Source: Candidatus Paceibacter sp. (GTDB lineage Bacteria > Patescibacteriota > Minisyncoccia > UBA9983). Taken from it: a stretch of DNA of 64,000 nt. Within the stretch, counting starts at the first letter, position 1, and the number at the start of each line of letters is the position of its first letter. Where the stretch lies: assembly GCA_013360865.1 (NCBI GenBank), contig JABWAS010000004.1, positions 412 through 64,411 of the forward strand. The letters run 5' to 3'. Below, piece after piece: positions 3,480-64,000 of the stretch. The notes under the pieces are model-generated. The model had not been told where the DNA came from and searched no databases. It worked only from the letters and a program-made list of their open reading frames with translations. The position numbers and the translations under genes are program-made.

Positions 3480-4442
3480 ATGTCTGGCCTTTCTGATTAC
3501 ATAAAAAATAGATTCGGGGTTGATGAAGACATCTTCCTCGAAGCAATAAATATAAGCCCTAGTGCCAGGGGGTATATTATGGGTGCAATAAGTGAGTTAT
3601 TTTTGGCTGAGTATTTAAAAAAGAAAGGTTTTGAGGTTCTTAGGATTAAAGAAAAACCGAAAGGCGGCAACAATGCAAAAAGTTCTGAAGCTCGAGGCGA
3701 TTTTTACATTCGACCAATAAATTCCGAAGAAGATAAATGGTTGGTTATAGAGAGTAAAGGACTAAAAAGCAACTCAGAATTTCGGGGAGATAAATTGAAT
3801 AGTCCGGACAAGCTATTTAGATTCCTTAAAGCTGTTGTGTCTTTAGCGAAAAACAAGTCAAAAACTTATGAGAATGGTTTGCGCTCGTATAAGCGAATAA
3901 AAGCGTTATGGGAAGCAAAAAACAAAAGAAAGTCATTTCCACAATTTAATTGGAATAAAGAATTTCCCGGTCCCATTGCGTGCGACTTGAGTAAAATTTG
4001 GAAATCTGAAGACGATTTGAAAAAATGGGTGTACGCTTTGCCAAAAGAACTATTTACTGAAACAGCCTATAGAAAAGTTGCGGGCGCGATAGCAATCCTT
4101 GAGACTCACCAACCGAGTACTAGAGTTGCGCCCATAACTGGTTTAAAACAAGCTGCTCCTCTTGTAAGTGACTTTAACATTATGGCCGTTGATCTCTTTT
4201 TAAGAACCGGAAAACATGAGTTTGTTTTTATGAATTCGTCGGAGATTAGTCATTCGCCGACTTCTCCCGAACACTTATACCAAAATTATGTTATTGATAT
4301 TTTAGTCAAAGGGAGAAAAGAGGAGCTTCGGATAAATCGCCCTTGGTATACCGATATCGAGGCGTGCATCAAAACAACCAAACCACAATATCGGATTATT
4401 GATAAAAGCCAGCTTGATAACAGAGAAGTAGAGGAAATGTGA
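3480..4442 (+). CDS. Putative PD-(D/E)xK nuclease (candidate restriction endonuclease)
   Basis: 320 aa; E...GDFYIRP...WLVIESKG arrangement fits D-x(n)-E-x-K nuclease core; located between C-protein-like gene and MTase. Confidence 0.45.
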   Translation: MSGLSDYIKNRFGVDEDIFLEAINISPSARGYIMGAISELFLAEYLKKKGFEVLRIKEKPKGGNNAKSSEARGDFYIRPINSEEDKWLVIESKGLKSNSEFRGDKLNSPDKLFRFLKAVVSLAKNKSKTYENGLRSYKRIKALWEAKNKRKSFPQFNWNKEFPGPIACDLSKIWKSEDDLKKWVYALPKELFTETAYRKVAGAIAILETHQPSTRVAPITGLKQAAPLVSDFNIMAVDLFLRTGKHEFVFMNSSEISHSPTSPEHLYQNYVIDILVKGRKEELRINRPWYTDIEACIKTTKPQYRIIDKSQLDNREVEEM

Positions 4443-4459
4443 GTTATCCACATTGAGAT

Positions 4460-4499
4460 AATACACCGCTGTGTAGTATAATTTACACAACGGTGTATT
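4460..4499. promoter_or_regulatory. 16-8-16 palindrome (AATACACCGCTGTGTA-gtataatt-TACACAACGGTGTATT) containing a TATAAT box, candidate operator/promoter of the MTase gene
   Basis: Arms are reverse complements with 1 mismatch; spacer contains tataat; 16 nt upstream of MTase start. Confidence 0.4.
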
Positions 4500-4514
4500 A
4501 TTTTACTTAATTTT

Positions 4515-6614
4515 ATGCAAAAGCAAATGCTTTTTCCAGAGTTGGAACAAATATCAAAAGACGACCTTAAAAAGGCCGAGAATCTTTTTAAGGTTTTTGG
4601 CGATATTCATAACCACATTTATGCTAACGATGGTCTCTCCTCTCAAGAAGCCTTTGCCGAAGTTCTAAAATTGCTTTTTATAAAAGTTGAAGATGAGCGA
4701 GGCGATGAAAAAAAATCAAAATTTTATATTTCGGAAGTTGAGAAAGATGAAATTAGTGATGGACGAGACGACACATTTCGTAAAAGGATTGTAGAGCTTT
4801 TTGATAAAGCAAAAAAGGACTACGACGATGTTTTTGATGAATCAGAAAAAATCAATCTCAAAACTGCGACCCTGGCATTTGTTGTTAGCAAACTTCAAAA
4901 CCTCAATCTTTCTCGTTCGGAGAGAGATGTTAAAGGAACGGCCTTTCAAAAATTTGTTTATTCTCATCAGCGTGGAGAACGCGGCCAGTTTTTTACACCT
5001 GATCCAATAATCCGGCTCTGTGTAGAATTTTTATCTCCACAAAAAAATGAGAAGGTCCTCGATCCTGCGTGCGGTACCGGCGGTTTCTTAGTAGAGGCCA
5101 TGAAGTATGTTTGGCAAAACAATTTCGCAAATATTAAGGACAGCGAACAAAGAAAAAAGAAAGAAATGGAATATGCCGAAAATCATCTTTTTGGTATAGA
5201 AATCAATCCTCTTGTCGCAAAGGTAGCAAAAATGCGAATGATTTTAGAAGACGATGGCTATTCTGGAATCGTCAATACTAATTCTCTTTCAAATATCCAT
5301 GCTATACAGAAGGAATTTTCAAAATCCACGAAATTAAACAAGATTGAAGGTTCTTTTGATTTAATTTTGACTAATCCACCATTTGGTTCTCAAGGTAAAG
5401 TTACAAACGAAAATGTTTTGCGAGATTTTTCACTTGGATATAAATGGTCAAAGGATAGTCGTGGAAAACTCGTTGCTACCAATCAATTACAGAATGGGCA
5501 AGTGCCGGAGATACTGTTTATCGAGCGTTGTCTTGGGTTATTAAAAGACGGAGGAAAACTAGCGATAGTTCTTCCAAATGGCGATTTTGAAAATTCCAGC
5601 CTCGATTATGTCAGAGAGTTTATAAATTCTAAGGCTAAAATTTTAGCAGTTGTTGCTTTGCCACCCGAAACTTTTATACCCCATGGGACGGGCGTTAAGG
5701 CCTCGCTGTTGTTCTGTCAAAAACTTTCTCCGGTAGAACTGGAGGCGCAAAAGAAAAAGGACTATTCGATTTTCTTTGCCAAGATCACAAAAGTTGGTTA
5801 TGAAGGAAATAAGAATGGCACAATTATTTATAAAAAGGATTCGCAAGGAAGGGTTGTGGAAAATCAGGATGGCGATCCTATCATTGATGAAGATATATCA
5901 GAAATAATCTCGGCATATTCTCAGTTTAGAGAGAGCAAAAAAATAAAAGCAAATAATAATATATTTACACTACAATATAGTGAGCTGAATAACCGATTTG
6001 ATGTTGAGTACTACAATCCCGAATATCGTAAAATTCGAACTCTACTTTCGAAAGGAGGCGCTAAAAAACTTGGAGAGCTAGTTGAAGTAGTAACTAGAAA
6101 AAGCAAGAGACTCAAAACTCCGGAGGCGGTGATTCGCTATGTCGAATTATCTGATGCAAGTTCTATAAATGGCGAGCTTGTTTCTTATTCAGAGATGCAG
6201 GTGCACGAAGCTCCTAGTCGCGCTTCTTATGAAATTGAGGAAGGAGATATTATTACTGCAGTTGCCGGTAACTCTATCGGAACAAAAAACCATGCCACAG
6301 CAATTGTAAGGCGAGATTTTAGTGGAGCAATATGTACGAACGGTTTTAGAGTTTTGAAAGCAAACAGCATTAATCCATATTATCTTTTCGCAATTCTACG
6401 ATCTGATATTTTTCTATCACAAATATTTAGATTACGGACTGGGGCGGCAATACCTTCGGTTTCTGATGAAGATTTAAAAAACATCCTAATTCCTATACCT
6501 CCAGAGACCGAACAGAAAAAAATAGAAAAAACAATCCGAGAAGGTTTAGAGTTGAGAGAGAAATCACGTCAGCTTTTAGACGGTATCTCTCTGGAGGCAT
6601 ATATTTTGAAGTAA
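4515..6614 (+). CDS. N6-adenine DNA methyltransferase, HsdM-like, with fused C-terminal HsdS-type target recognition domain
   Basis: 699 aa; HsdM N-terminal domain, motif I LDPACGTGGFL, motif IV LILTNPPFG; C-terminal ~220 aa resembles a single HsdS TRD plus conserved C-terminal helix (GELVEV...EQKKIEKTI). Confidence 0.85.
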   Translation: MQKQMLFPELEQISKDDLKKAENLFKVFGDIHNHIYANDGLSSQEAFAEVLKLLFIKVEDERGDEKKSKFYISEVEKDEISDGRDDTFRKRIVELFDKAKKDYDDVFDESEKINLKTATLAFVVSKLQNLNLSRSERDVKGTAFQKFVYSHQRGERGQFFTPDPIIRLCVEFLSPQKNEKVLDPACGTGGFLVEAMKYVWQNNFANIKDSEQRKKKEMEYAENHLFGIEINPLVAKVAKMRMILEDDGYSGIVNTNSLSNIHAIQKEFSKSTKLNKIEGSFDLILTNPPFGSQGKVTNENVLRDFSLGYKWSKDSRGKLVATNQLQNGQVPEILFIERCLGLLKDGGKLAIVLPNGDFENSSLDYVREFINSKAKILAVVALPPETFIPHGTGVKASLLFCQKLSPVELEAQKKKDYSIFFAKITKVGYEGNKNGTIIYKKDSQGRVVENQDGDPIIDEDISEIISAYSQFRESKKIKANNNIFTLQYSELNNRFDVEYYNPEYRKIRTLLSKGGAKKLGELVEVVTRKSKRLKTPEAVIRYVELSDASSINGELVSYSEMQVHEAPSRASYEIEEGDIITAVAGNSIGTKNHATAIVRRDFSGAICTNGFRVLKANSINPYYLFAILRSDIFLSQIFRLRTGAAIPSVSDEDLKNILIPIPPETEQKKIEKTIREGLELREKSRQLLDGISLEAYILK

Positions 6615-13921: not shown

Positions 13922-13987
13922 AAAAGCCAAGCAAAAACCGACCTGCTAGGTTGAAGAAGTTAAAACCTGGCAGGTCGGTTTTTCAGT

Positions 13988-27723: not shown

Positions 27724-27810
27724 AAGAAACAAATTTTGAAAATCCTGGGCGGGGGCGGCCGGCCGAGTCTGCGAGCCTGCCTGCCGGCAGGCAGGGCTGG
27801 GGCTAGAGGA
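27724..27810. repeat. MITE-like element with 13-14 bp terminal inverted repeats (TTTTGAAAATCCT ... AGGATTTTCCAAAA) and central palindrome CCTGCCTGCCGGCAGGCAGG
   Basis: Related copies at 60553..60680 (inverse orientation, longer) and core at 36008..36028. Confidence 0.75.
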
Positions 27811-35943: not shown

Positions 35944-36126
35944 ATGTAATATTTATTTTTCAAACTTTCAATCGGGTCAATCCCGCCTTAAGCGGGACTG
36001 CTTTCAACCCTGCCTGCCGGCAGGCAGGCGCTCACACACCTCTCCAAAATACAAGATAAAAATAGCACTGTTTGTTTTGAATTACAATAACTTATATAAT
36101 TTTATTTAATCGTTGGGATTGTTGTT

Positions 36127-38268: not shown

Positions 38269-38280
38269 CTTCGCCGAGAA

Positions 38281-38320
38281 CTTGGAAGCGAAACTTCCAA
38301 TTGGAAGTTTCGCTTCCAAG
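38281..38320. repeat. 40-bp perfect palindrome (CTTGGAAGCGAAACTTCCAA/TTGGAAGTTTCGCTTCCAAG); family member also at 56405..56449
   Basis: Second half is exact reverse complement of first; sits just after pilM stop; likely terminator-like hairpin/repeat family. Confidence 0.8.
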
Positions 38321-38419
38321 TTTCTTCCAAGTTTAAATTTCCAATTAAAAAATCATTTCACAGGGTAAATGTGGATAGCCCCTTTTTGCTTTAAAAATTT
38401 GACAGGTTAAAATATTGAT

Positions 38420-45174: not shown

Positions 45175-45790
45175 CAACACAAAACCCTCCGGCAAATGCC
45201 GGAGGGTTTTGTGTTACCCCCATAAACCCCCAGCTTTAGCTGGGGTGTGCGTTTAAAGACGAAGTCCTTGTAATAAAATCACCTTAAGTCGATATTAACA
45301 ACCTAAGGTGATTTTTGCGTATGAACAAGCGATTGTATCAGCTGACCCACTCAACATGGATCTGCGATTATCACGTTGTCTGGTGTTCCAAATACCGTGG
45401 AAAAGTGTTGGAACCACCTTTTATTAAACAAGAGCTGAAAAGAATGTTCAAGTACATAGCCAAATGGAAAGGACTTGTAATCCAGCAGTGGCACATCGGA
45501 GACGAACACATCCATCTGTTTGTATCCATTCCGCCCAAATATTCCGTCGCCTACATAACCCAGGTAATGAAAGGAAAAACCTCAATGTGGCTGAAGAAAA
45601 AGACCAAGAAATTCCCGAAAGGAACGCTGTGGGCAAGAGGCTATTATGTTTCCACCATCGGCATTAACGAACACCAGATAAGAAACTACATCAAAAACCA
45701 GCAACACCACCAAGTGGAAATGCCCACGCTGTTTTAATCCGCCGAAGGCGGAAAGAAAGAAACCCCTAGTTTTAACTAGGGGTTTTCATT
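45175..45790 (+). mobile_element. IS200/IS605-family-like insertion sequence (tnpA only) with subterminal hairpins
   Basis: Left hairpins CACAAAACCCTCCGGC-aaat-GCCGGAGGGTTTTGTG (45175..45215), CCCCAGC-ttt-AGCTGGGG, ATCACCTTAAG..CCTAAGGTGAT; right hairpins CCGCCGAAGGCGG and AAACCCCTAGTTTTAACTAGGGGTTT. Confidence 0.7.
45315..45737 (+). CDS. tnpA: IS200-family Y1 (HUH) transposase TnpA
   Basis: 140 aa; HUH motif HIHLFVSIPP and catalytic Tyr region LWARGYYVSTIG. Confidence 0.85.
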   Translation: MRMNKRLYQLTHSTWICDYHVVWCSKYRGKVLEPPFIKQELKRMFKYIAKWKGLVIQQWHIGDEHIHLFVSIPPKYSVAYITQVMKGKTSMWLKKKTKKFPKGTLWARGYYVSTIGINEHQIRNYIKNQQHHQVEMPTLF

Positions 45791-56375: not shown

Positions 56376-56522
56376 TCCGATGTCTTTTGCGGCTGGGCAA
56401 GTCCACTTGGAAGTAACTTGGAAGTTTCGCTTCCAAGTTACTTCCAAGTTAAATTTGAATACCTAATTAATTACTAAAGATAAGTTGATTTCAGATGGCG
56501 AATAAGGCAGAATTAAACCATT

Positions 56523-59371: not shown

Positions 59372-60361
59372 ATGGAACAATTTTTGAATCTATTTTTGAT
59401 TGTTCTGGGTGTCGGCGGCTTTGCGCTGGCTTTTTACATCCACAAAAGCAAGAAGAAAGCGAAGCCTATGGTTTGCCCGCTGGACGGGCATTGCGACGAA
59501 GTAGTACACAGCGAATATTCGGAGTTTTTTGGCATTTCTTTGGAAAAGTTTGGCATGGCTTATTACGCGGCGGTGGCTCTGGCTTACGGAGCTTATTCTT
59601 ACTTTTCTTCTCTGCCGCCTTACGCTTCTTTCGTCTTGTTTTTTCTGACGGCGGGCGCCTTCCTTTTTTCGTTGTATCTGACCTTTATCCAGGCCTTCAA
59701 TCTTAGGAAGTGGTGCACCTGGTGCCTTATTTCCGCGGGAATATGTTCCTTTATCTTCGTGGCTTCGTTGTTTGCCGTCAAGTCAGGTTTTACCACTTTG
59801 CCGCTGGAAATTTTTGCGGCGGTGGGAAATTTACTGGCGGCCGCGATGGCGGTCGGTTCTTCCGCGGTTTCTTTGGTTATCTTGATAAAATTTGCCGGAG
59901 ATATGGATATAAGCGCGGCGGAAGCGGAAACAATTCACCTGCTTTCCCAGGTGTTTTGGTTTTCTATGGCGTCGGTTGTTTTAAGCGGTTTCGGTTTGTT
60001 TTTGTCCGATGGCGGCATTCCGACTTATCCGGCTATTTTTTGGCTGAAATTTTTACTAGCCTTATTCCTTATAGGCTTGGCGGCTGCCTTCAACCTTGTC
60101 GCGCTGCCCAAGGCAATTAAAGAAACCGCGATTATCGGAGGGCAGGGTAAGGGTAATTTATCCAAAGAAGAAGCGCTTGGTCTTTTGGCCATGAGCATGA
60201 CGACCATCGCCGCTTCTTTCGCCTTTTTTATTCTCTCGGCATTTCCCGGATTCTTTGTTTTTTTGGGTTTCGCCAATTTGTCCATTATTTTAATTGTCGT
60301 CTTGGCGGTTTTTGCTTCCGCCGGCAGGCGATTGGGGGAAACCATCTCTTTGGGCGTGTAA
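59372..60361 (+). CDS. VKOR-family (vitamin K epoxide reductase-like) membrane protein with C-terminal multi-TM extension
   Basis: 329 aa; loop cysteines CPLDGHC and active-site CTWC after KW, as in VKOR/DsbB-analog proteins; ATG one nt after tRNA-Thr. Confidence 0.55.
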   Translation: MEQFLNLFLIVLGVGGFALAFYIHKSKKKAKPMVCPLDGHCDEVVHSEYSEFFGISLEKFGMAYYAAVALAYGAYSYFSSLPPYASFVLFFLTAGAFLFSLYLTFIQAFNLRKWCTWCLISAGICSFIFVASLFAVKSGFTTLPLEIFAAVGNLLAAAMAVGSSAVSLVILIKFAGDMDISAAEAETIHLLSQVFWFSMASVVLSGFGLFLSDGGIPTYPAIFWLKFLLALFLIGLAAAFNLVALPKAIKETAIIGGQGKGNLSKEEALGLLAMSMTTIAASFAFFILSAFPGFFVFLGFANLSIILIVVLAVFASAGRRLGETISLGV

Positions 60362-60383
60362 AAGTATAATTCTTGGCTAACAA

Positions 60384-60419
60384 AAGACATCCGATGTCCA
60401 ATTGGACATCGGATGTCTT
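60384..60419. terminator. 36-bp palindromic hairpin (AAGACATCCGATGTCCAATTGGACATCGGATGTCTT)
   Basis: Perfect palindrome; same family as 56343..56375. Confidence 0.7.
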
Positions 60420-60552
60420 AATTAAAGGGATGACAATTTCAAAATTTTATTTTTGAACTGGGATTTTTGAGTTATCCACAGTGGCTGACTGAAAGCGTCA
60501 GGGGTAAAATTACAAGTACTTAATAATTAAACAAAAGCTCCGAAAATAAAAT

Positions 60553-60680
60553 TTTGGAAAATCCTTTAGCCCCAGCCCTGCCTGCCGGCAGGCAGGCTCG
60601 CAGACTCGGCTGGCCGCCCCCGACCCCGCCCGCCACGCAAGCCAGCTTGCTGGCGTTGCGGGCAGGCAGGATTTTCAAAA
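60553..60680. repeat. MITE-like element, longer copy (TIRs TTTTGGAAAATCCT / AGGATTTTCAAAA; core CCCTGCCTGCCGGCAGGCAGG)
   Basis: ~85% identical over shared part to reverse complement of 27724..27810 plus ~45-bp GC-rich insertion; directly upstream of nrdD. Confidence 0.75.
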
Positions 60681-60702
60681 TTTATTTTCTTCGCTTTTAT
60701 GC

Positions 60703-62892
60703 TTGGCAACAATGATTTCAAAAATAATCAAAAGAAACGGAGAGATAGTTGACTTCAAACCGGAGAAAATAAGCAACGCTATCACTAAGGCGGTGCAAGC
60801 CGTCGGCGGTCATGATTTGGAGACCCCGAAGAAGCTTACGGAGATTGTGGTAAAGCAGATAGAAAAAGTATTCGGCGGCAGCGGCAGACTCCCGGACGTG
60901 GAGAGCGTGCAGGATGTTGTTGAAAAGGTGCTTATAGAAGAAGGCCACGCCAAAACCGCCAAAGCCTACATTCTTTACCGCGAAAAAAGAAACGAAAGAC
61001 GCTACGACAAAAGCGTCACGGTCAGCGTGGAAAAAACTATTTCCGAATATCTCAACCGCGAGGACTGGAGAGTTAACGCCAACGCCAACCAGGGTTATTC
61101 TTTGGGCGGAATGATACTCAACACTTCCGGCAAAGTTACAGCCAACTACTGGCTTTCCCATGTTTATCCCGAGGACGTGGCCAATGCCCACAGAAACGCC
61201 GATTATCATATTCACGACCTGGATATGTTCTCCGGTTATTGCGCCGGCTGGTCGCTGCGGGCGCTTCTGGAAGAAGGGCTCAACGGCGTGCCTTCCAAAA
61301 CGGAATCGGCCCCGCCCAAGCATTTGTCCAGCGCCATCAATCAGATGGTTAACTTTTTCGGCACGCTTCAGAACGAGTGGGCCGGCGCGCAGGCGTTTTC
61401 TTCTTTTGACACTTATCTTTCCCCGTTCGTGAAAAAGTTTGAGATGGAACTGGAAGACGAAATAAACAATTCCGGCGTTTACAATTTTCCGTCGGAAGAG
61501 GCGAAGCAGAAATTCATTGACGAAAAGACCTACAAATTTGTCAAACAAAACATCCAATCCTTCGTCTTCAACCTCAATATCCCGTCCAGATGGGGGACGC
61601 AGACTCCTTTTACCAACATTACTTTAGACCTCGTTTGCCCGGAAGACCTGAAAAAGCAGAGTCTGAAGATGGGCGGCAAATACTTCCCTTACGCGTTCGG
61701 CCAGCTCCAGAAAGAAATGGACATGATAAACAAGGCTTACGTGGAAGTGATGACCGCTGGAGACGCCAAGGGCAGAGTCTTCACTTTTCCCATCCCGACT
61801 TACAACATCACTAAAGACTTTGATTGGGACAATCCCAATCATGAGCCCATTTTTGAGATGACGGCCAAATATGGTATGCCTTACTTCCAAAACTTCATCA
61901 ATTCCGATATGAAGCCCAATCAGATTCGTTCCATGTGCTGCCGCCTTCAGTTGGACTTGCGGGAGCTTCTCAAACGGGGTAACGGGCTTTTCGGCAGCGC
62001 CGAAATGACCGGCAGCATTGGAGTGGTGACCATCAATTCCGCCAGAATAGGCTACACCGGCAAAGGCGACAAGCAAAAATTTTTGGAGCGGCTGGAACAT
62101 CTGATGTATCTGGCCAAGACCTCGTTGGAAATAAAAAGAAAAGAAGTGGCCAAGTGGCTGGAGCGCGGATTGTTCCCTTACTCCAAGAGATATTTGCCGG
62201 GGTTGAACAATCATTTTTCCACCATCGGCATTAACGGGCTAAACGAAGCGATATTAAATTTTACCGGCGGCAAGGAAAACATAACCACCGAATGGGGCTC
62301 AAAATTCGCCGAGGAAACGCTGATTTTCATGAGAGAAAAATTGAAGGCTTATCAGGAGGAAACGGGCAATCTTTATAACCTGGAGGCTTCTCCGGCGGAG
62401 GGCGCCACCCATCGCTTCGCCAAGGAGGACCAGCGGATTTTCCCCGGCATAATCCAGGCCGGAACGCCGGAAGCTCCTTACTACACCAACTCCTCCCAGA
62501 TACCGGTGGAGTACACGGACGACGCCTTTGAGGCGCTGGAGCTGCAGGACAAACTGCAGACCAAGTATACCGGAGGCACAGTTCTGCACTTATATATGAA
62601 TGAGAGGATGTGCGACGCCTCAAGTTGCCGGAAGCTGGTTAAAACAGTATTGAGCAAATACCGGCTGCCATATATCACCATCACCCCGACGTTTTCCATC
62701 TGTCCCAAGCATGGATACTTGAAAGGCGAGCATCACTTCTGCCCGGCGTGCGACCAGGAGATAGGTTACGCCGGAAGCAACATTGATGAAAACGAAATTA
62801 AAAAACACAGGTCGAAAAAATTATCAGCCGATTCGCTGGGCGATTTGGCGCGCGGTAGCGCGCCGGCGGTTCTGGAGGAAGAGAAGGCCTAG
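60703..62892 (+). CDS. nrdD: Anaerobic ribonucleoside-triphosphate reductase NrdD (ATP-cone + catalytic barrel + Zn ribbon; glycyl-radical segment not included)
   Basis: 729 aa; ATP-cone N-terminus MISKIIKRNGEIVDFKPEKISNAITKA; C-terminal CPKHGY...HHFCPAC Zn ribbon; ends TAG at 62890. Confidence 0.85.
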   Translation: MATMISKIIKRNGEIVDFKPEKISNAITKAVQAVGGHDLETPKKLTEIVVKQIEKVFGGSGRLPDVESVQDVVEKVLIEEGHAKTAKAYILYREKRNERRYDKSVTVSVEKTISEYLNREDWRVNANANQGYSLGGMILNTSGKVTANYWLSHVYPEDVANAHRNADYHIHDLDMFSGYCAGWSLRALLEEGLNGVPSKTESAPPKHLSSAINQMVNFFGTLQNEWAGAQAFSSFDTYLSPFVKKFEMELEDEINNSGVYNFPSEEAKQKFIDEKTYKFVKQNIQSFVFNLNIPSRWGTQTPFTNITLDLVCPEDLKKQSLKMGGKYFPYAFGQLQKEMDMINKAYVEVMTAGDAKGRVFTFPIPTYNITKDFDWDNPNHEPIFEMTAKYGMPYFQNFINSDMKPNQIRSMCCRLQLDLRELLKRGNGLFGSAEMTGSIGVVTINSARIGYTGKGDKQKFLERLEHLMYLAKTSLEIKRKEVAKWLERGLFPYSKRYLPGLNNHFSTIGINGLNEAILNFTGGKENITTEWGSKFAEETLIFMREKLKAYQEETGNLYNLEASPAEGATHRFAKEDQRIFPGIIQAGTPEAPYYTNSSQIPVEYTDDAFEALELQDKLQTKYTGGTVLHLYMNERMCDASSCRKLVKTVLSKYRLPYITITPTFSICPKHGYLKGEHHFCPACDQEIGYAGSNIDENEIKKHRSKKLSADSLGDLARGSAPAVLEEEKA

Positions 62893-62958
62893 CGGATTTA
62901 CCCCCACATATGTTTTGGCATGGCAAAAAGCGAGCCGAAGATTTTGCAAAGGTGAACA

Positions 62959-63165
62959 ATGCCAAAACAGGTGTGGGGGTTTAAAACAATGACAAACAAC
63001 GAAATCCAGCAGAAAAGAACAAGGTGCGAAGTTTGGACGAGAGTGATGGGCTACCACAGGCCAGTCTCCCACTTCAACCTTGGCAAGAAATCGGAACACT
63101 ATTCCCGCACGCACTTCAAGGAAGGAAAGACGATGAATTCTTCTTTCTGCAAGAAATACAGCTAA
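62959..63165 (+). CDS. NrdD C-terminal glycyl-radical domain encoded as separate 68-aa ORF (same frame as nrdD)
   Basis: TRVMGYHRPVSHFNLGKKSEHYSRTHF aligns to E. coli NrdD RRVCGYLGSPDARPFNAGKQEEVKRRVKH (glycyl radical RxxGY); separated from nrdD body by TAG, 57 nt, TGA; ATG lies in right arm of 21-bp inverted repeat. Confidence 0.6.
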   Translation: MPKQVWGFKTMTNNEIQQKRTRCEVWTRVMGYHRPVSHFNLGKKSEHYSRTHFKEGKTMNSSFCKKYS

Positions 63166-63330
63166 TTTTTTAAATATTATTAAAAAATTAGAAATTCCAA
63201 AATCCAGGCGCCAAATTCCAAATAATATCTAAATTCAAAATATCAATTTCTAAACATTTGTTAATTTTGGGTTAAGGTCATTGAAATTTGTTTGGAATTT
63301 GGGTTTTGGGATTTGGAATTTTTTATTCTT

Positions 63331-64000
63331 ATGTTAATCGCTGGTGTTGAAAAACTGACCACGCTTGATTACCCGGGCCGCCTGGCGGCCATTGTTTTTA
63401 CCGCCGGATGCAACTTCCGCTGCGGTTATTGCCATAATCCGCAAATGGTGGATCCGGAAAGGATGAAAGAAACCGTAAAAGACCTCATACCGGAAGAGGT
63501 GTTTTTCAATTTTCTTACCAAAAGAAAGGGAATGCTGGACGGCGTGTGTATTACTGGAGGCGAACCGACTTTGCAGCCGGATTTGCTTGAGTTCGTTCTG
63601 AAGATAAAAAGTCTCGGTTTTAAAGTAAAAATAGACACCAATGGGACGATGCCCGGCGTTCTGGAGTCGCTTCTGGAAAATAAAGCCGTTGATTATTTCG
63701 CCATGGACATAAAAACCAGTCTAAAACGCTACGAGGAAGTCGCCCGATTTAAGTTAGTGAAGGAAGAAATAAACAGGTCAAAAGAAATTATCCAGAATTG
63801 CGGCCTGGAATACGAGTTCAGGACCACTGTTTTAAAAGAAATCCACCCTTTTGAAGTTTTTGACGAAATAGGGGAATGGATAAAAGGCGCGGAAAAATAT
63901 TATTTACAAAATTTTCGTTCTAAATCGGTGCTGGAAAAATATTTTGAAAATTACAACGGATTTTCTGAAAATGAATTGGCTGAAGTCCGATCAGTAATGG
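63331..64000 (+). CDS. nrdG: Anaerobic RNR activating radical-SAM protein NrdG (partial, runs off window)
   Basis: CNFRCGYCHNP (CxxxCxxC) radical-SAM motif near N-terminus; no stop before window end. Confidence 0.8.
   Translation, partial: MLIAGVEKLTTLDYPGRLAAIVFTAGCNFRCGYCHNPQMVDPERMKETVKDLIPEEVFFNFLTKRKGMLDGVCITGGEPTLQPDLLEFVLKIKSLGFKVKIDTNGTMPGVLESLLENKAVDYFAMDIKTSLKRYEEVARFKLVKEEINRSKEIIQNCGLEYEFRTTVLKEIHPFEVFDEIGEWIKGAEKYYLQNFRSKSVLEKYFENYNGFSENELAEVRSVM

Follow-up and report, generated by a model that had tools for sequence, protein, structure and literature searches.

Can the glycyl radical of an anaerobic ribonucleotide reductase (RNR) reside on a polypeptide of its own? The question is raised by the nrd operon near the end of a 64,000-nt stretch of DNA from Candidatus Paceibacter sp. 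(GenBank assembly GCA_013360865.1, contig JABWAS010000004.1, positions 412 to 64,411 of the forward strand; henceforth the window, in which all coordinates are given). There, the nrdD gene for the class III RNR ends after the part that codes for the zinc ribbon, and the segment with the RxxGY glycyl-radical motif follows in a separate open reading frame (ORF) behind a hairpin. A first-pass annotation, made from the sequence alone, had left two readings side by side: a small in-frame insertion that split nrdD, or a class III RNR naturally made of two polypeptides. At the level of the sequence, the locus consists of two conserved, separately initiated ORFs that jointly equal a single-chain NrdD, followed by the gene for the activase. 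We consider it probable that this is a natural two-gene class III RNR and that the hairpin is a lineage-specific, tolerated insertion of an element resembling a miniature inverted-repeat transposable element (MITE).

The large gene (60712..62892, plus strand) encodes 726 amino acids (aa) if begun at ATG 60712, as NCBI calls it in L081 (the ORF itself opens at TTG 60703). Its product comprises an ATP-cone, the catalytic barrel, a zinc ribbon and a variable tail, and contains no glycyl-radical motif. It matches Pfam NRDD (PF13597) at 4.3e-173 over profile positions 2-529 of 562, together with the Pfam ATP-cone, and scores 1077 bits with NCBIfam PRK08270 (cutoff 548) and 442 bits with TIGR02487 (cutoff 326); residues 103-610 of the Thermotoga maritima NrdD structure (4COI, 651 residues) align to it. 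The zinc ribbon (C667-P-K-H670 ... C680-P-A-C683 in the 729-aa numbering; encoded at 62701..62751, plus strand, as read from the translation) is the last portion that is colinear with single-chain NrdD, and the NRDD match stops at residue 685. The 44 residues that follow (62758..62889, plus strand) are without counterpart in the NRDD profile. Neither the length nor the sequence of this tail is constant from one close relative to the next, and over all loci it measures 1-43 aa. Within its coding sequence in the window lies a GC-rich palindrome, GGCGCGCGGTAGCGCGCC (62846-62863). An internal duplication in the tail, suggested by the likeness of segment NIDENEIKKHRSKK to MTNNEIQQKRTRCE, was dropped, as the similarity in DNA is weak (score 20) and relatives lend it no support.

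The segment missing from the large protein is found in the small gene, which we place at 62989..63165 (plus strand; 58 aa, MTNNEIQQKRTRCEVWTRVMGYHRPV...) on the strength of its NRDD match, an identical NCBI protein, the alignment of its N-terminus and its dN/dS (the ratio of non-synonymous to synonymous substitution rates). Residues 20-53 of the small ORF correspond to NRDD positions 531-562, and the profile is thus colinear across the break. Only the C-terminus of NRDD is matched, and there is no homology to the Gly_radical domain of the pyruvate formate-lyase (PFL) type. No dedicated family for the small protein exists in Pfam or NCBIfam; its only matches are to the C-terminal part of models for whole NrdD, and its scores with those of NCBIfam lie far under the cutoffs. 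The predicted radical glycine, read from the sequence, is Gly21 of RVMGY (GGC codon at 63049..63051, plus strand), which is invariant in 117 small proteins. A 58-aa protein in NCBI from a Candidatus Pacebacteria metagenome-assembled genome (MAG; our entry P0001) is 100% identical and bears the name “anaerobic ribonucleoside-triphosphate reductase”. Behind the small gene follows nrdG (63331..64000, plus strand), of which the window holds the 5′ part only, the gene continuing past its end (234 aa in the NCBI call). Its radical-SAM (S-adenosylmethionine) product matches NCBIfam TIGR02495 NrdG2 at 5.4e-60 (202 bits; cutoff 131) and Pfam Radical_SAM. The locus, then, has the barrel and the adjacent radical-SAM activase of a class III RNR and lacks the RVxGY motif on the barrel polypeptide.

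The spacer between the large and the small gene is structured. From the TAG stop (62890..62892, plus strand) to an in-frame TGA (62953-62955) there are 60 nt, or 20 codons; the first-pass annotation was right about the two stops and had given 57 nt for the distance. The inverted repeat that it had noticed between the ORFs is real, with 22-nt arms (62900-62921 and 62959-62980) that are 91% complementary and enclose a 37-nt loop, and no such pair turned up in 100 shuffles. The predicted RNA fold of the hairpin has -39.2 kcal/mol (z = -3.9; a separate shuffle test on the spacer gave z = -6.2). Its stem starts 8 nt past the stop of the large gene and finishes 9 nt before ATG 62989. An independent assembly from another sequencing run (L082; Logan, SRR34397407) is 99.96% identical over 2548 nt, with a single mismatch, and carries the identical TAG, hairpin and TGA. 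An Rfam scan of 60300-63500 (E up to 10) returned only chance matches to microRNA and small-RNA models, far under their gathering scores, and no intron, riboswitch or leader family. A scan for terminator and promoter consensus sequences yielded nothing at the hairpin, such sites being fewer than in shuffles.

A scan of one genome per species gave 80 related loci, in which the zinc ribbon and the radical motif were located; the state counts refer to the 75 loci in which the two were both assignable. The radical segment forms a separate ORF at 52 loci and a separate ORF that also bears a redoxin domain at another 11, which makes 63 split loci out of 75; the remaining 12 have a fused, single-chain NrdD. 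Split loci occur in Pacebacteria, Peregrinibacteria, Gracilibacteria, Magasanikbacteria, a chlamydial MAG, spirochaetes and DPANN archaea, as well as in many gut Alpha- and Betaproteobacteria (Sutterella, Parasutterella, Holosporales), and in a neighbour-joining tree the split forms make up large clades beside fused members of the Candidate Phyla Radiation (CPR) and other lineages. The closest relatives that we fetched, L083 (77.6% nucleotide identity), L084 (which shares the VKOR-nrdD synteny with the window), L085 and L087, are all split, and their spacers are short (18-35 nt), AT-rich and hairpin-free; in most split loci the spacer is unstructured.

Compared with the large ORF, the small one is in frame 0 at 18 loci, in frame 1 at 20 and in frame 2 at 25. 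Since all three frames are used by the relatives, the shared frame in the window is a coincidence. A Shine–Dalgarno-like motif (e.g., taaggagataaaattATG) stands ahead of the small-gene ATG in 54 of the 63 split loci. The distance from stop to start ranges from -32 to +400 nt, with a median of 49, and includes overlaps of -4, -8 and -32 nt, among them the ATGA type. Proteins matching the small ORF number 2236 in the databases, the best 120 of which are all 53-110 aa long; 18 columns are invariant in the alignment of the 117 small proteins, among them the RVMGY glycine G21. Between the window and its closest split relatives, the dN/dS of the small ORF is 0.06-0.11 (with dS near saturation), the signature of strong purifying selection. 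Judged by these comparisons, the split is old and widespread, being neither recent nor the mark of a pseudogene, and the two-polypeptide reading offered by the first-pass annotation is supported.

Where the small protein begins deserves a closer look, because the hairpin contributes a start codon. The same-frame 68-aa ORF downstream of nrdD, described from the start as carrying the radical motif, indeed runs from ATG 62959 to 63165 and contains TRVMGYHRPVSHFNLGKKSE. ATG 62959, placed by the first-pass annotation in an arm of the hairpin and taken for the start, sits inside the right terminal repeat of the inserted element, from which it follows that it came with that element; in the predicted fold it is base-paired in the stem. 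ATG 62989 falls in an unpaired, A-rich stretch, 9 nt past the stem. Depending on the choice, the predicted N-terminus reads MTNNE... (62989) or MPKQVWGFKTMTNNE... (62959). The one encoded from ATG 62989, MTNNEIQQKRTRCEVW, aligns with the N-termini of relatives (MQNTNTSIQQKRTK, MENNEINKKRTRC, MTQAEKQLKRTRC), MTNNEIQQKR lining up with MQNTNTSIQQKR and MENNEINKKR, and the NCBI annotation of the gene also begins there. For these reasons taken together, we annotate 62989..63165 as the gene. The true start is likely ATG 62989, with a product of 58 aa, and the 68-aa reading would be a chance in-frame extension supplied by the element, although ATG 62959 might still be used as a start.

The hairpin itself proved to belong to a family of dispersed repeats. 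The element measures 79 nt (62901..62979), has terminal inverted repeats (62901-62921 and 62959-62979), encloses both the TGA (62953-62955) and ATG 62959, and is flanked by 4-bp target-site duplications, TTTA, on the left (62897..62900) and on the right (62980..62983). Further copies were sought by scanning metagenomes with the arm pattern, which gave eight matches. In L091, L092 and L094, the same 21-nt ends (CCCCCACACCTGTTTTGGCAT), in inverted orientation, flank an element of 136-139 nt; L088, L089, L090, L093 and L095 have one arm only and were treated as unrelated. Subterminal sequence (GGCATnGCAAAA ... TTTTGCAAAAGCGAACAATGCC) is common to the window copy and these three, the window copy being internally shorter. 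All four copies are bordered by 4-bp direct repeats (TTTA in the window and in L091, CATG in L094, TTCA in L092), and their contexts are unrelated: the interior of a prepilin gene (L092), the region downstream of small convergent ORFs (L091) and a site beside a 403-aa ORF on the opposite strand (L094). With its terminal inverted repeats, target-site duplication and dispersed copies, the element fits the working definition of a MITE as far as sequences can tell. Excising it in silico together with one TTTA leaves TAG-CGGATTTAAAACA-ATG, an AT-rich spacer of 13 nt, short like the 18-35 nt of the relatives. Correia elements of Neisseria are bacterial MITEs, and our element resembles them in architecture: both are short and non-coding, have terminal inverted repeats and a target-site duplication, lie between co-transcribed genes and give a long hairpin in the mRNA. 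In our family the duplication is of 4 bp (TTTA, CATG, TTCA). By its CC ends and a duplication of 4-5 bp, the family may perhaps be of IS1380-like origin.

The L092 copy (3597-3790) interrupts a gene for a type IV prepilin at codons 4-5 (ATGAAACAAGGATTCA | element | TTCACACTACTTGAG), where its right end, ATGCCAAAACAGGTGTGGGGG, provides an in-frame substitute leader, MPKQVWG, before FTLLEIV. In the window, too, the outward-reading ATG of the element is in frame with the radical-peptide gene; the element may, by its sequence, act as a portable start codon.

How might such an enzyme work? The large gene would supply the ATP-cone, the barrel and the zinc ribbon, and the small gene only the glycyl-radical loop (RVMG21Y). 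By analogy with known class III RNRs and glycyl-radical enzymes, NrdG would use SAM to abstract a hydrogen from Gly21 of the small protein, creating the radical; the small protein would dock non-covalently at the site occupied by the C-terminal radical domain in the single-chain NrdD of T. maritima and phage T4, and the radical would then be handed to the active-site cysteine in the large subunit. For one single-chain NrdD, a mobile radical domain is reported, whose order or disorder varies with the bound nucleotides (PMC11226230), which makes a detachable one plausible. As for the DNA, the 79-nt element would have inserted into a former spacer of ~13 nt, and an ATG at its right end happens to share the frame of the small gene. 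Once folded, it would leave the stop and ATG 62989 within 8 and 9 nt across the base of the helix, and so may preserve coupled expression. Most simply, the inserted hairpin would be a tolerated passenger, which may affect mRNA stability or coupling.

Four other explanations have to be set against a natural two-gene enzyme carrying a passenger hairpin. That an error of assembly or sequencing created the stops, a concern since the source is a MAG, is next to impossible: an artefact is ruled out by the match of L082, both stops and hairpin included, and the architecture recurs in dozens of unrelated assemblies. The first-pass annotation had also considered a recent disruption, which would make nrdD a nascent pseudogene and the downstream ORF a decaying fragment. 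Two in-frame stops and an inserted element between conserved parts do give that impression; the split is, however, older than the insertion, for 63 of the 75 relatives are split without such an element and between them carry the small ORF in every frame, the small ORF is conserved in the way described (low dN/dS, 18 invariant columns), and even after removal of the element a TAG, a 13-nt spacer and a separate ATG remain. Disruption is accordingly a very remote prospect. Hardly better placed is a recoding event that restores a single chain, be it by readthrough, bypassing (as in T4 gene 60), RNA splicing or protein trans-splicing. In its favour, the two parts share a frame in the window and a stable hairpin follows the stop. 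Against it, the frames of the relatives are evenly spread, their spacers vary from overlap to hundreds of nt and their small ORFs have their own Shine–Dalgarno motif and ATG. Readthrough would, moreover, need two different stop codons to be decoded in the window; for bypassing, there is no pair of take-off and landing sites (the GCC before TAG recurs at 62961, from where it leads straight into TAA); for splicing, Rfam offers no intron family; and a split intein would need longer tails than those present, which measure 1-43 aa in the large protein and ~5-20 aa ahead of the conserved core in the small one.

More serious, yet still improbable, is the idea that the hairpin is a functional device, original or exapted, which controls translation of the radical subunit or couples it to that of the large one, its stem hiding the ribosome-binding region until opened by translation of the large gene or by a signal. 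The stem is very stable and close to both the stop and ATG 62989, and where the family consensus has AAAAGCGAACAATG, the window copy reads AAAGGTGAACAATG, which yields a GGTG before ATG 62959. The hairpin is nonetheless missing from the four closest split relatives and is no general feature of the 63 split loci, while the element belongs to a dispersed family with target-site duplications in unrelated contexts and resides in a genome rich in intergenic palindromes; the translational control proposed by the first-pass annotation thus finds no support in the comparison. Several points tell against our own preference for a natural two-gene enzyme with a passenger insertion. The stem covers, besides ATG 62959, a GGGGGU 8 nt upstream of ATG 62989, a possible weak ribosome-binding site by way of which the hairpin might have acquired a regulatory effect. 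We found no empty-site allele of this exact locus, the closest relatives having at most 78% nucleotide identity, and no autonomous element with these ends, a scan of viral contigs for the element end giving no match. Only three further copies were found, all in other metagenomes, with none elsewhere in the window. Translation of the small ORF and formation of a heteromer are inferences. AlphaFold2 modelled the small protein alone (117 homologues) with low confidence (predicted local distance difference test 61; predicted template modelling score 0.22), which would be compatible with folding upon binding and proves nothing. Searches with the small protein alone by phmmer against PDB sequences and by tblastn against 50,697 phage records gave no match, and a chimera of zinc ribbon and radical segment aligned weakly to residues 579-649 of T. 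maritima NrdD.

With the single-chain class III systems NrdD/NrdG (phage T4, 1H78; T. maritima, 4COI; P. copri, 8P23 and 9D3X), the locus has in common the ATP-cone, the barrel, the zinc ribbon, the RVxGY loop and the adjacent activase, and its two ORFs, taken jointly, run colinear with the models Pfam NRDD and NCBIfam PRK08270. In the solved or characterised class III RNRs, however, the radical domain is on the same chain, whereas it is a separate polypeptide in the window and in 63 of the 75 relatives. The comparison with GrcA (YfiD), drawn already in the first-pass annotation, holds as a concept: a small free-standing protein, essentially a glycyl-radical loop, acts in trans with a large partner. 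GrcA is a spare part for PFL, an enzyme with a radical domain of its own, and is homologous to the PFL C-terminus. As to membership the comparison fails, because the large protein in the window is without a radical domain and the small one matches NRDD and not the PFL-type domain; with such a partner, the small protein would be obligate rather than spare.

Split RNRs of other classes are on record, namely NrdJa/NrdJb of Pseudomonas (class II) and the split NrdA of phage Aeh1 (class I) (PMC4520616, PMC3267527). In these, as in the window, the catalytic subunit is the product of two adjacent genes colinear with single-chain homologues; the class, the break point and the content of the small piece are different. 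What is asked of a split RNR, that is, adjacent and co-directional ORFs that are colinear with the single chain and conserved across species, is found here. Recent analyses across the RNRs place the radical domain at the C-terminus and, as to splits, mention that of class II alone (PMC9669993, PMC9531940); the RNR reviews and phylogenies that we found mention only split NrdJ and Aeh1 NrdA, and among open-access papers and preprints we found no description of a split nrdD. The small-ORF sequences are not new, as annotation pipelines have already named them, and it is the architecture that seems to be undescribed in the open-access literature.

If the two proteins work together as proposed, this would be, as far as our searches reached, the first glycyl-radical enzyme with its radical loop as an obligate separate subunit. 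The two-piece reading reaches much further than the window locus, into many uncultured lineages (CPR, DPANN) and gut bacteria (Sutterella, Treponema), where it may be an important RNR, and should be of interest to both the RNR and the glycyl-radical fields. Going further, on the notion of a widespread heteromeric class III RNR, whose radical sits on a free peptide of ~55-75 residues that is activated by NrdG off the enzyme and then docks as a replaceable cartridge, we find ourselves evenly divided. Glycyl-radical proteins are destroyed by oxygen through cleavage at the glycine. The radical carrier could for that reason be a cheap, replaceable cartridge, with the principle of GrcA as the normal state; that cheap replacement of an oxygen-cleaved carrier is the actual advantage is speculation by analogy with GrcA. 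The system would also offer a natural case of how a buried radical domain becomes accessible to its activase, with a peptide that one could activate, label or swap separately. For annotation, large NrdD proteins without the glycine motif should not be called pseudogenes, and the small ORFs named “anaerobic ribonucleoside-triphosphate reductase” would be real subunits.

The inserted hairpin is one of many in the window, and with so many other intergenic palindromes around it is nothing special for this genome. Ordinary in itself, it does show operon spacers in CPR genomes being colonised by small mobile repeats. Between the small gene and nrdG, a long AT-rich inverted repeat (63169-63337) fills the gap, with arms of 43-47 nt and AAATTCCAAA repeats, folding at -50.3 kcal/mol (z -5.6), so that long hairpins are present in all three non-coding gaps of the window nrd operon. 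A second repeat family, GC-rich and palindromic (core CCTGCCTGCCGGCAGGCAGG; arms AAATTTTGGAAAATCC / GGATTTTCAAAATTT), has three copies in the window against 0.05 expected (60533-60698, 27776-27795 and 36009-36028), the first of which occupies the 5′ leader of nrdD (-74.7 kcal/mol, z -4.1); a similar motif is present in L006, within the nrdD spacer, and in L084, where the tail is encoded. Near-perfect hairpins of 18-22 bp with short loops are found at 4458-4501, 13933-13983, 38279-38322, 45176-45215, 56405-56449 and 60384-60419. They are intergenic, 11-72 nt beyond the nearest upstream ORF stop, and some share GGACATCCGATGTCC and ACTTGGAAG; the one at 13933 is alone in having a clear T-run.

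Among the relatives, some variants of the split stand out. In spirochaete and Termititenax loci (L057, L059, L071, L073, L075-L080) and in Nanoarchaeia (L068), the separate radical ORF is 144-181 aa long. In it, the radical loop precedes a glutaredoxin/thioredoxin-like domain whose CxxC motif reads CPNCPP in Treponema; Pfam returns the NRDD C-terminus plus Glutaredoxin or Thioredoxin_2. Such a fusion would unite the radical carrier with a likely reductant in a single small protein. The radical-redoxin gene of Treponema is preceded by paired palindromes (such as ACACTAAATATAGTGT and CACACTATATTTAGTA; L073 ~5160-5210, L076 ~5055-5100 and L080 ~5070-5125) that look like candidate matches to the NrdR-box consensus; if they are NrdR boxes, the small gene of Treponema would have its own NrdR-controlled promoter.

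In three Holosporales (L018, L028, L054) and two Burkholderiaceae (L043, L051), the large subunit stops after the zinc ribbon, and the 3 kb to the left and to the right contain no RxxGY-type ORF; nrdG directly follows the large gene in L043 and L051. Going by these sequences, the radical-peptide gene may be unlinked or lost in the five. A 12,985-bp contig (P0103; Logan ERR4592246) has a 53-aa radical-loop ORF without nrdD as a neighbour, beside an Amidase_2 gene and small unannotated ORFs, which could be a stand-alone or mobile copy. Finally, in the peregrinibacterial locus L001 (3734-4137), the two genes lie 400 nt apart with a strongly structured spacer between them (-109 kcal/mol, z -2.3), in which a further insertion or a small gene may be present.

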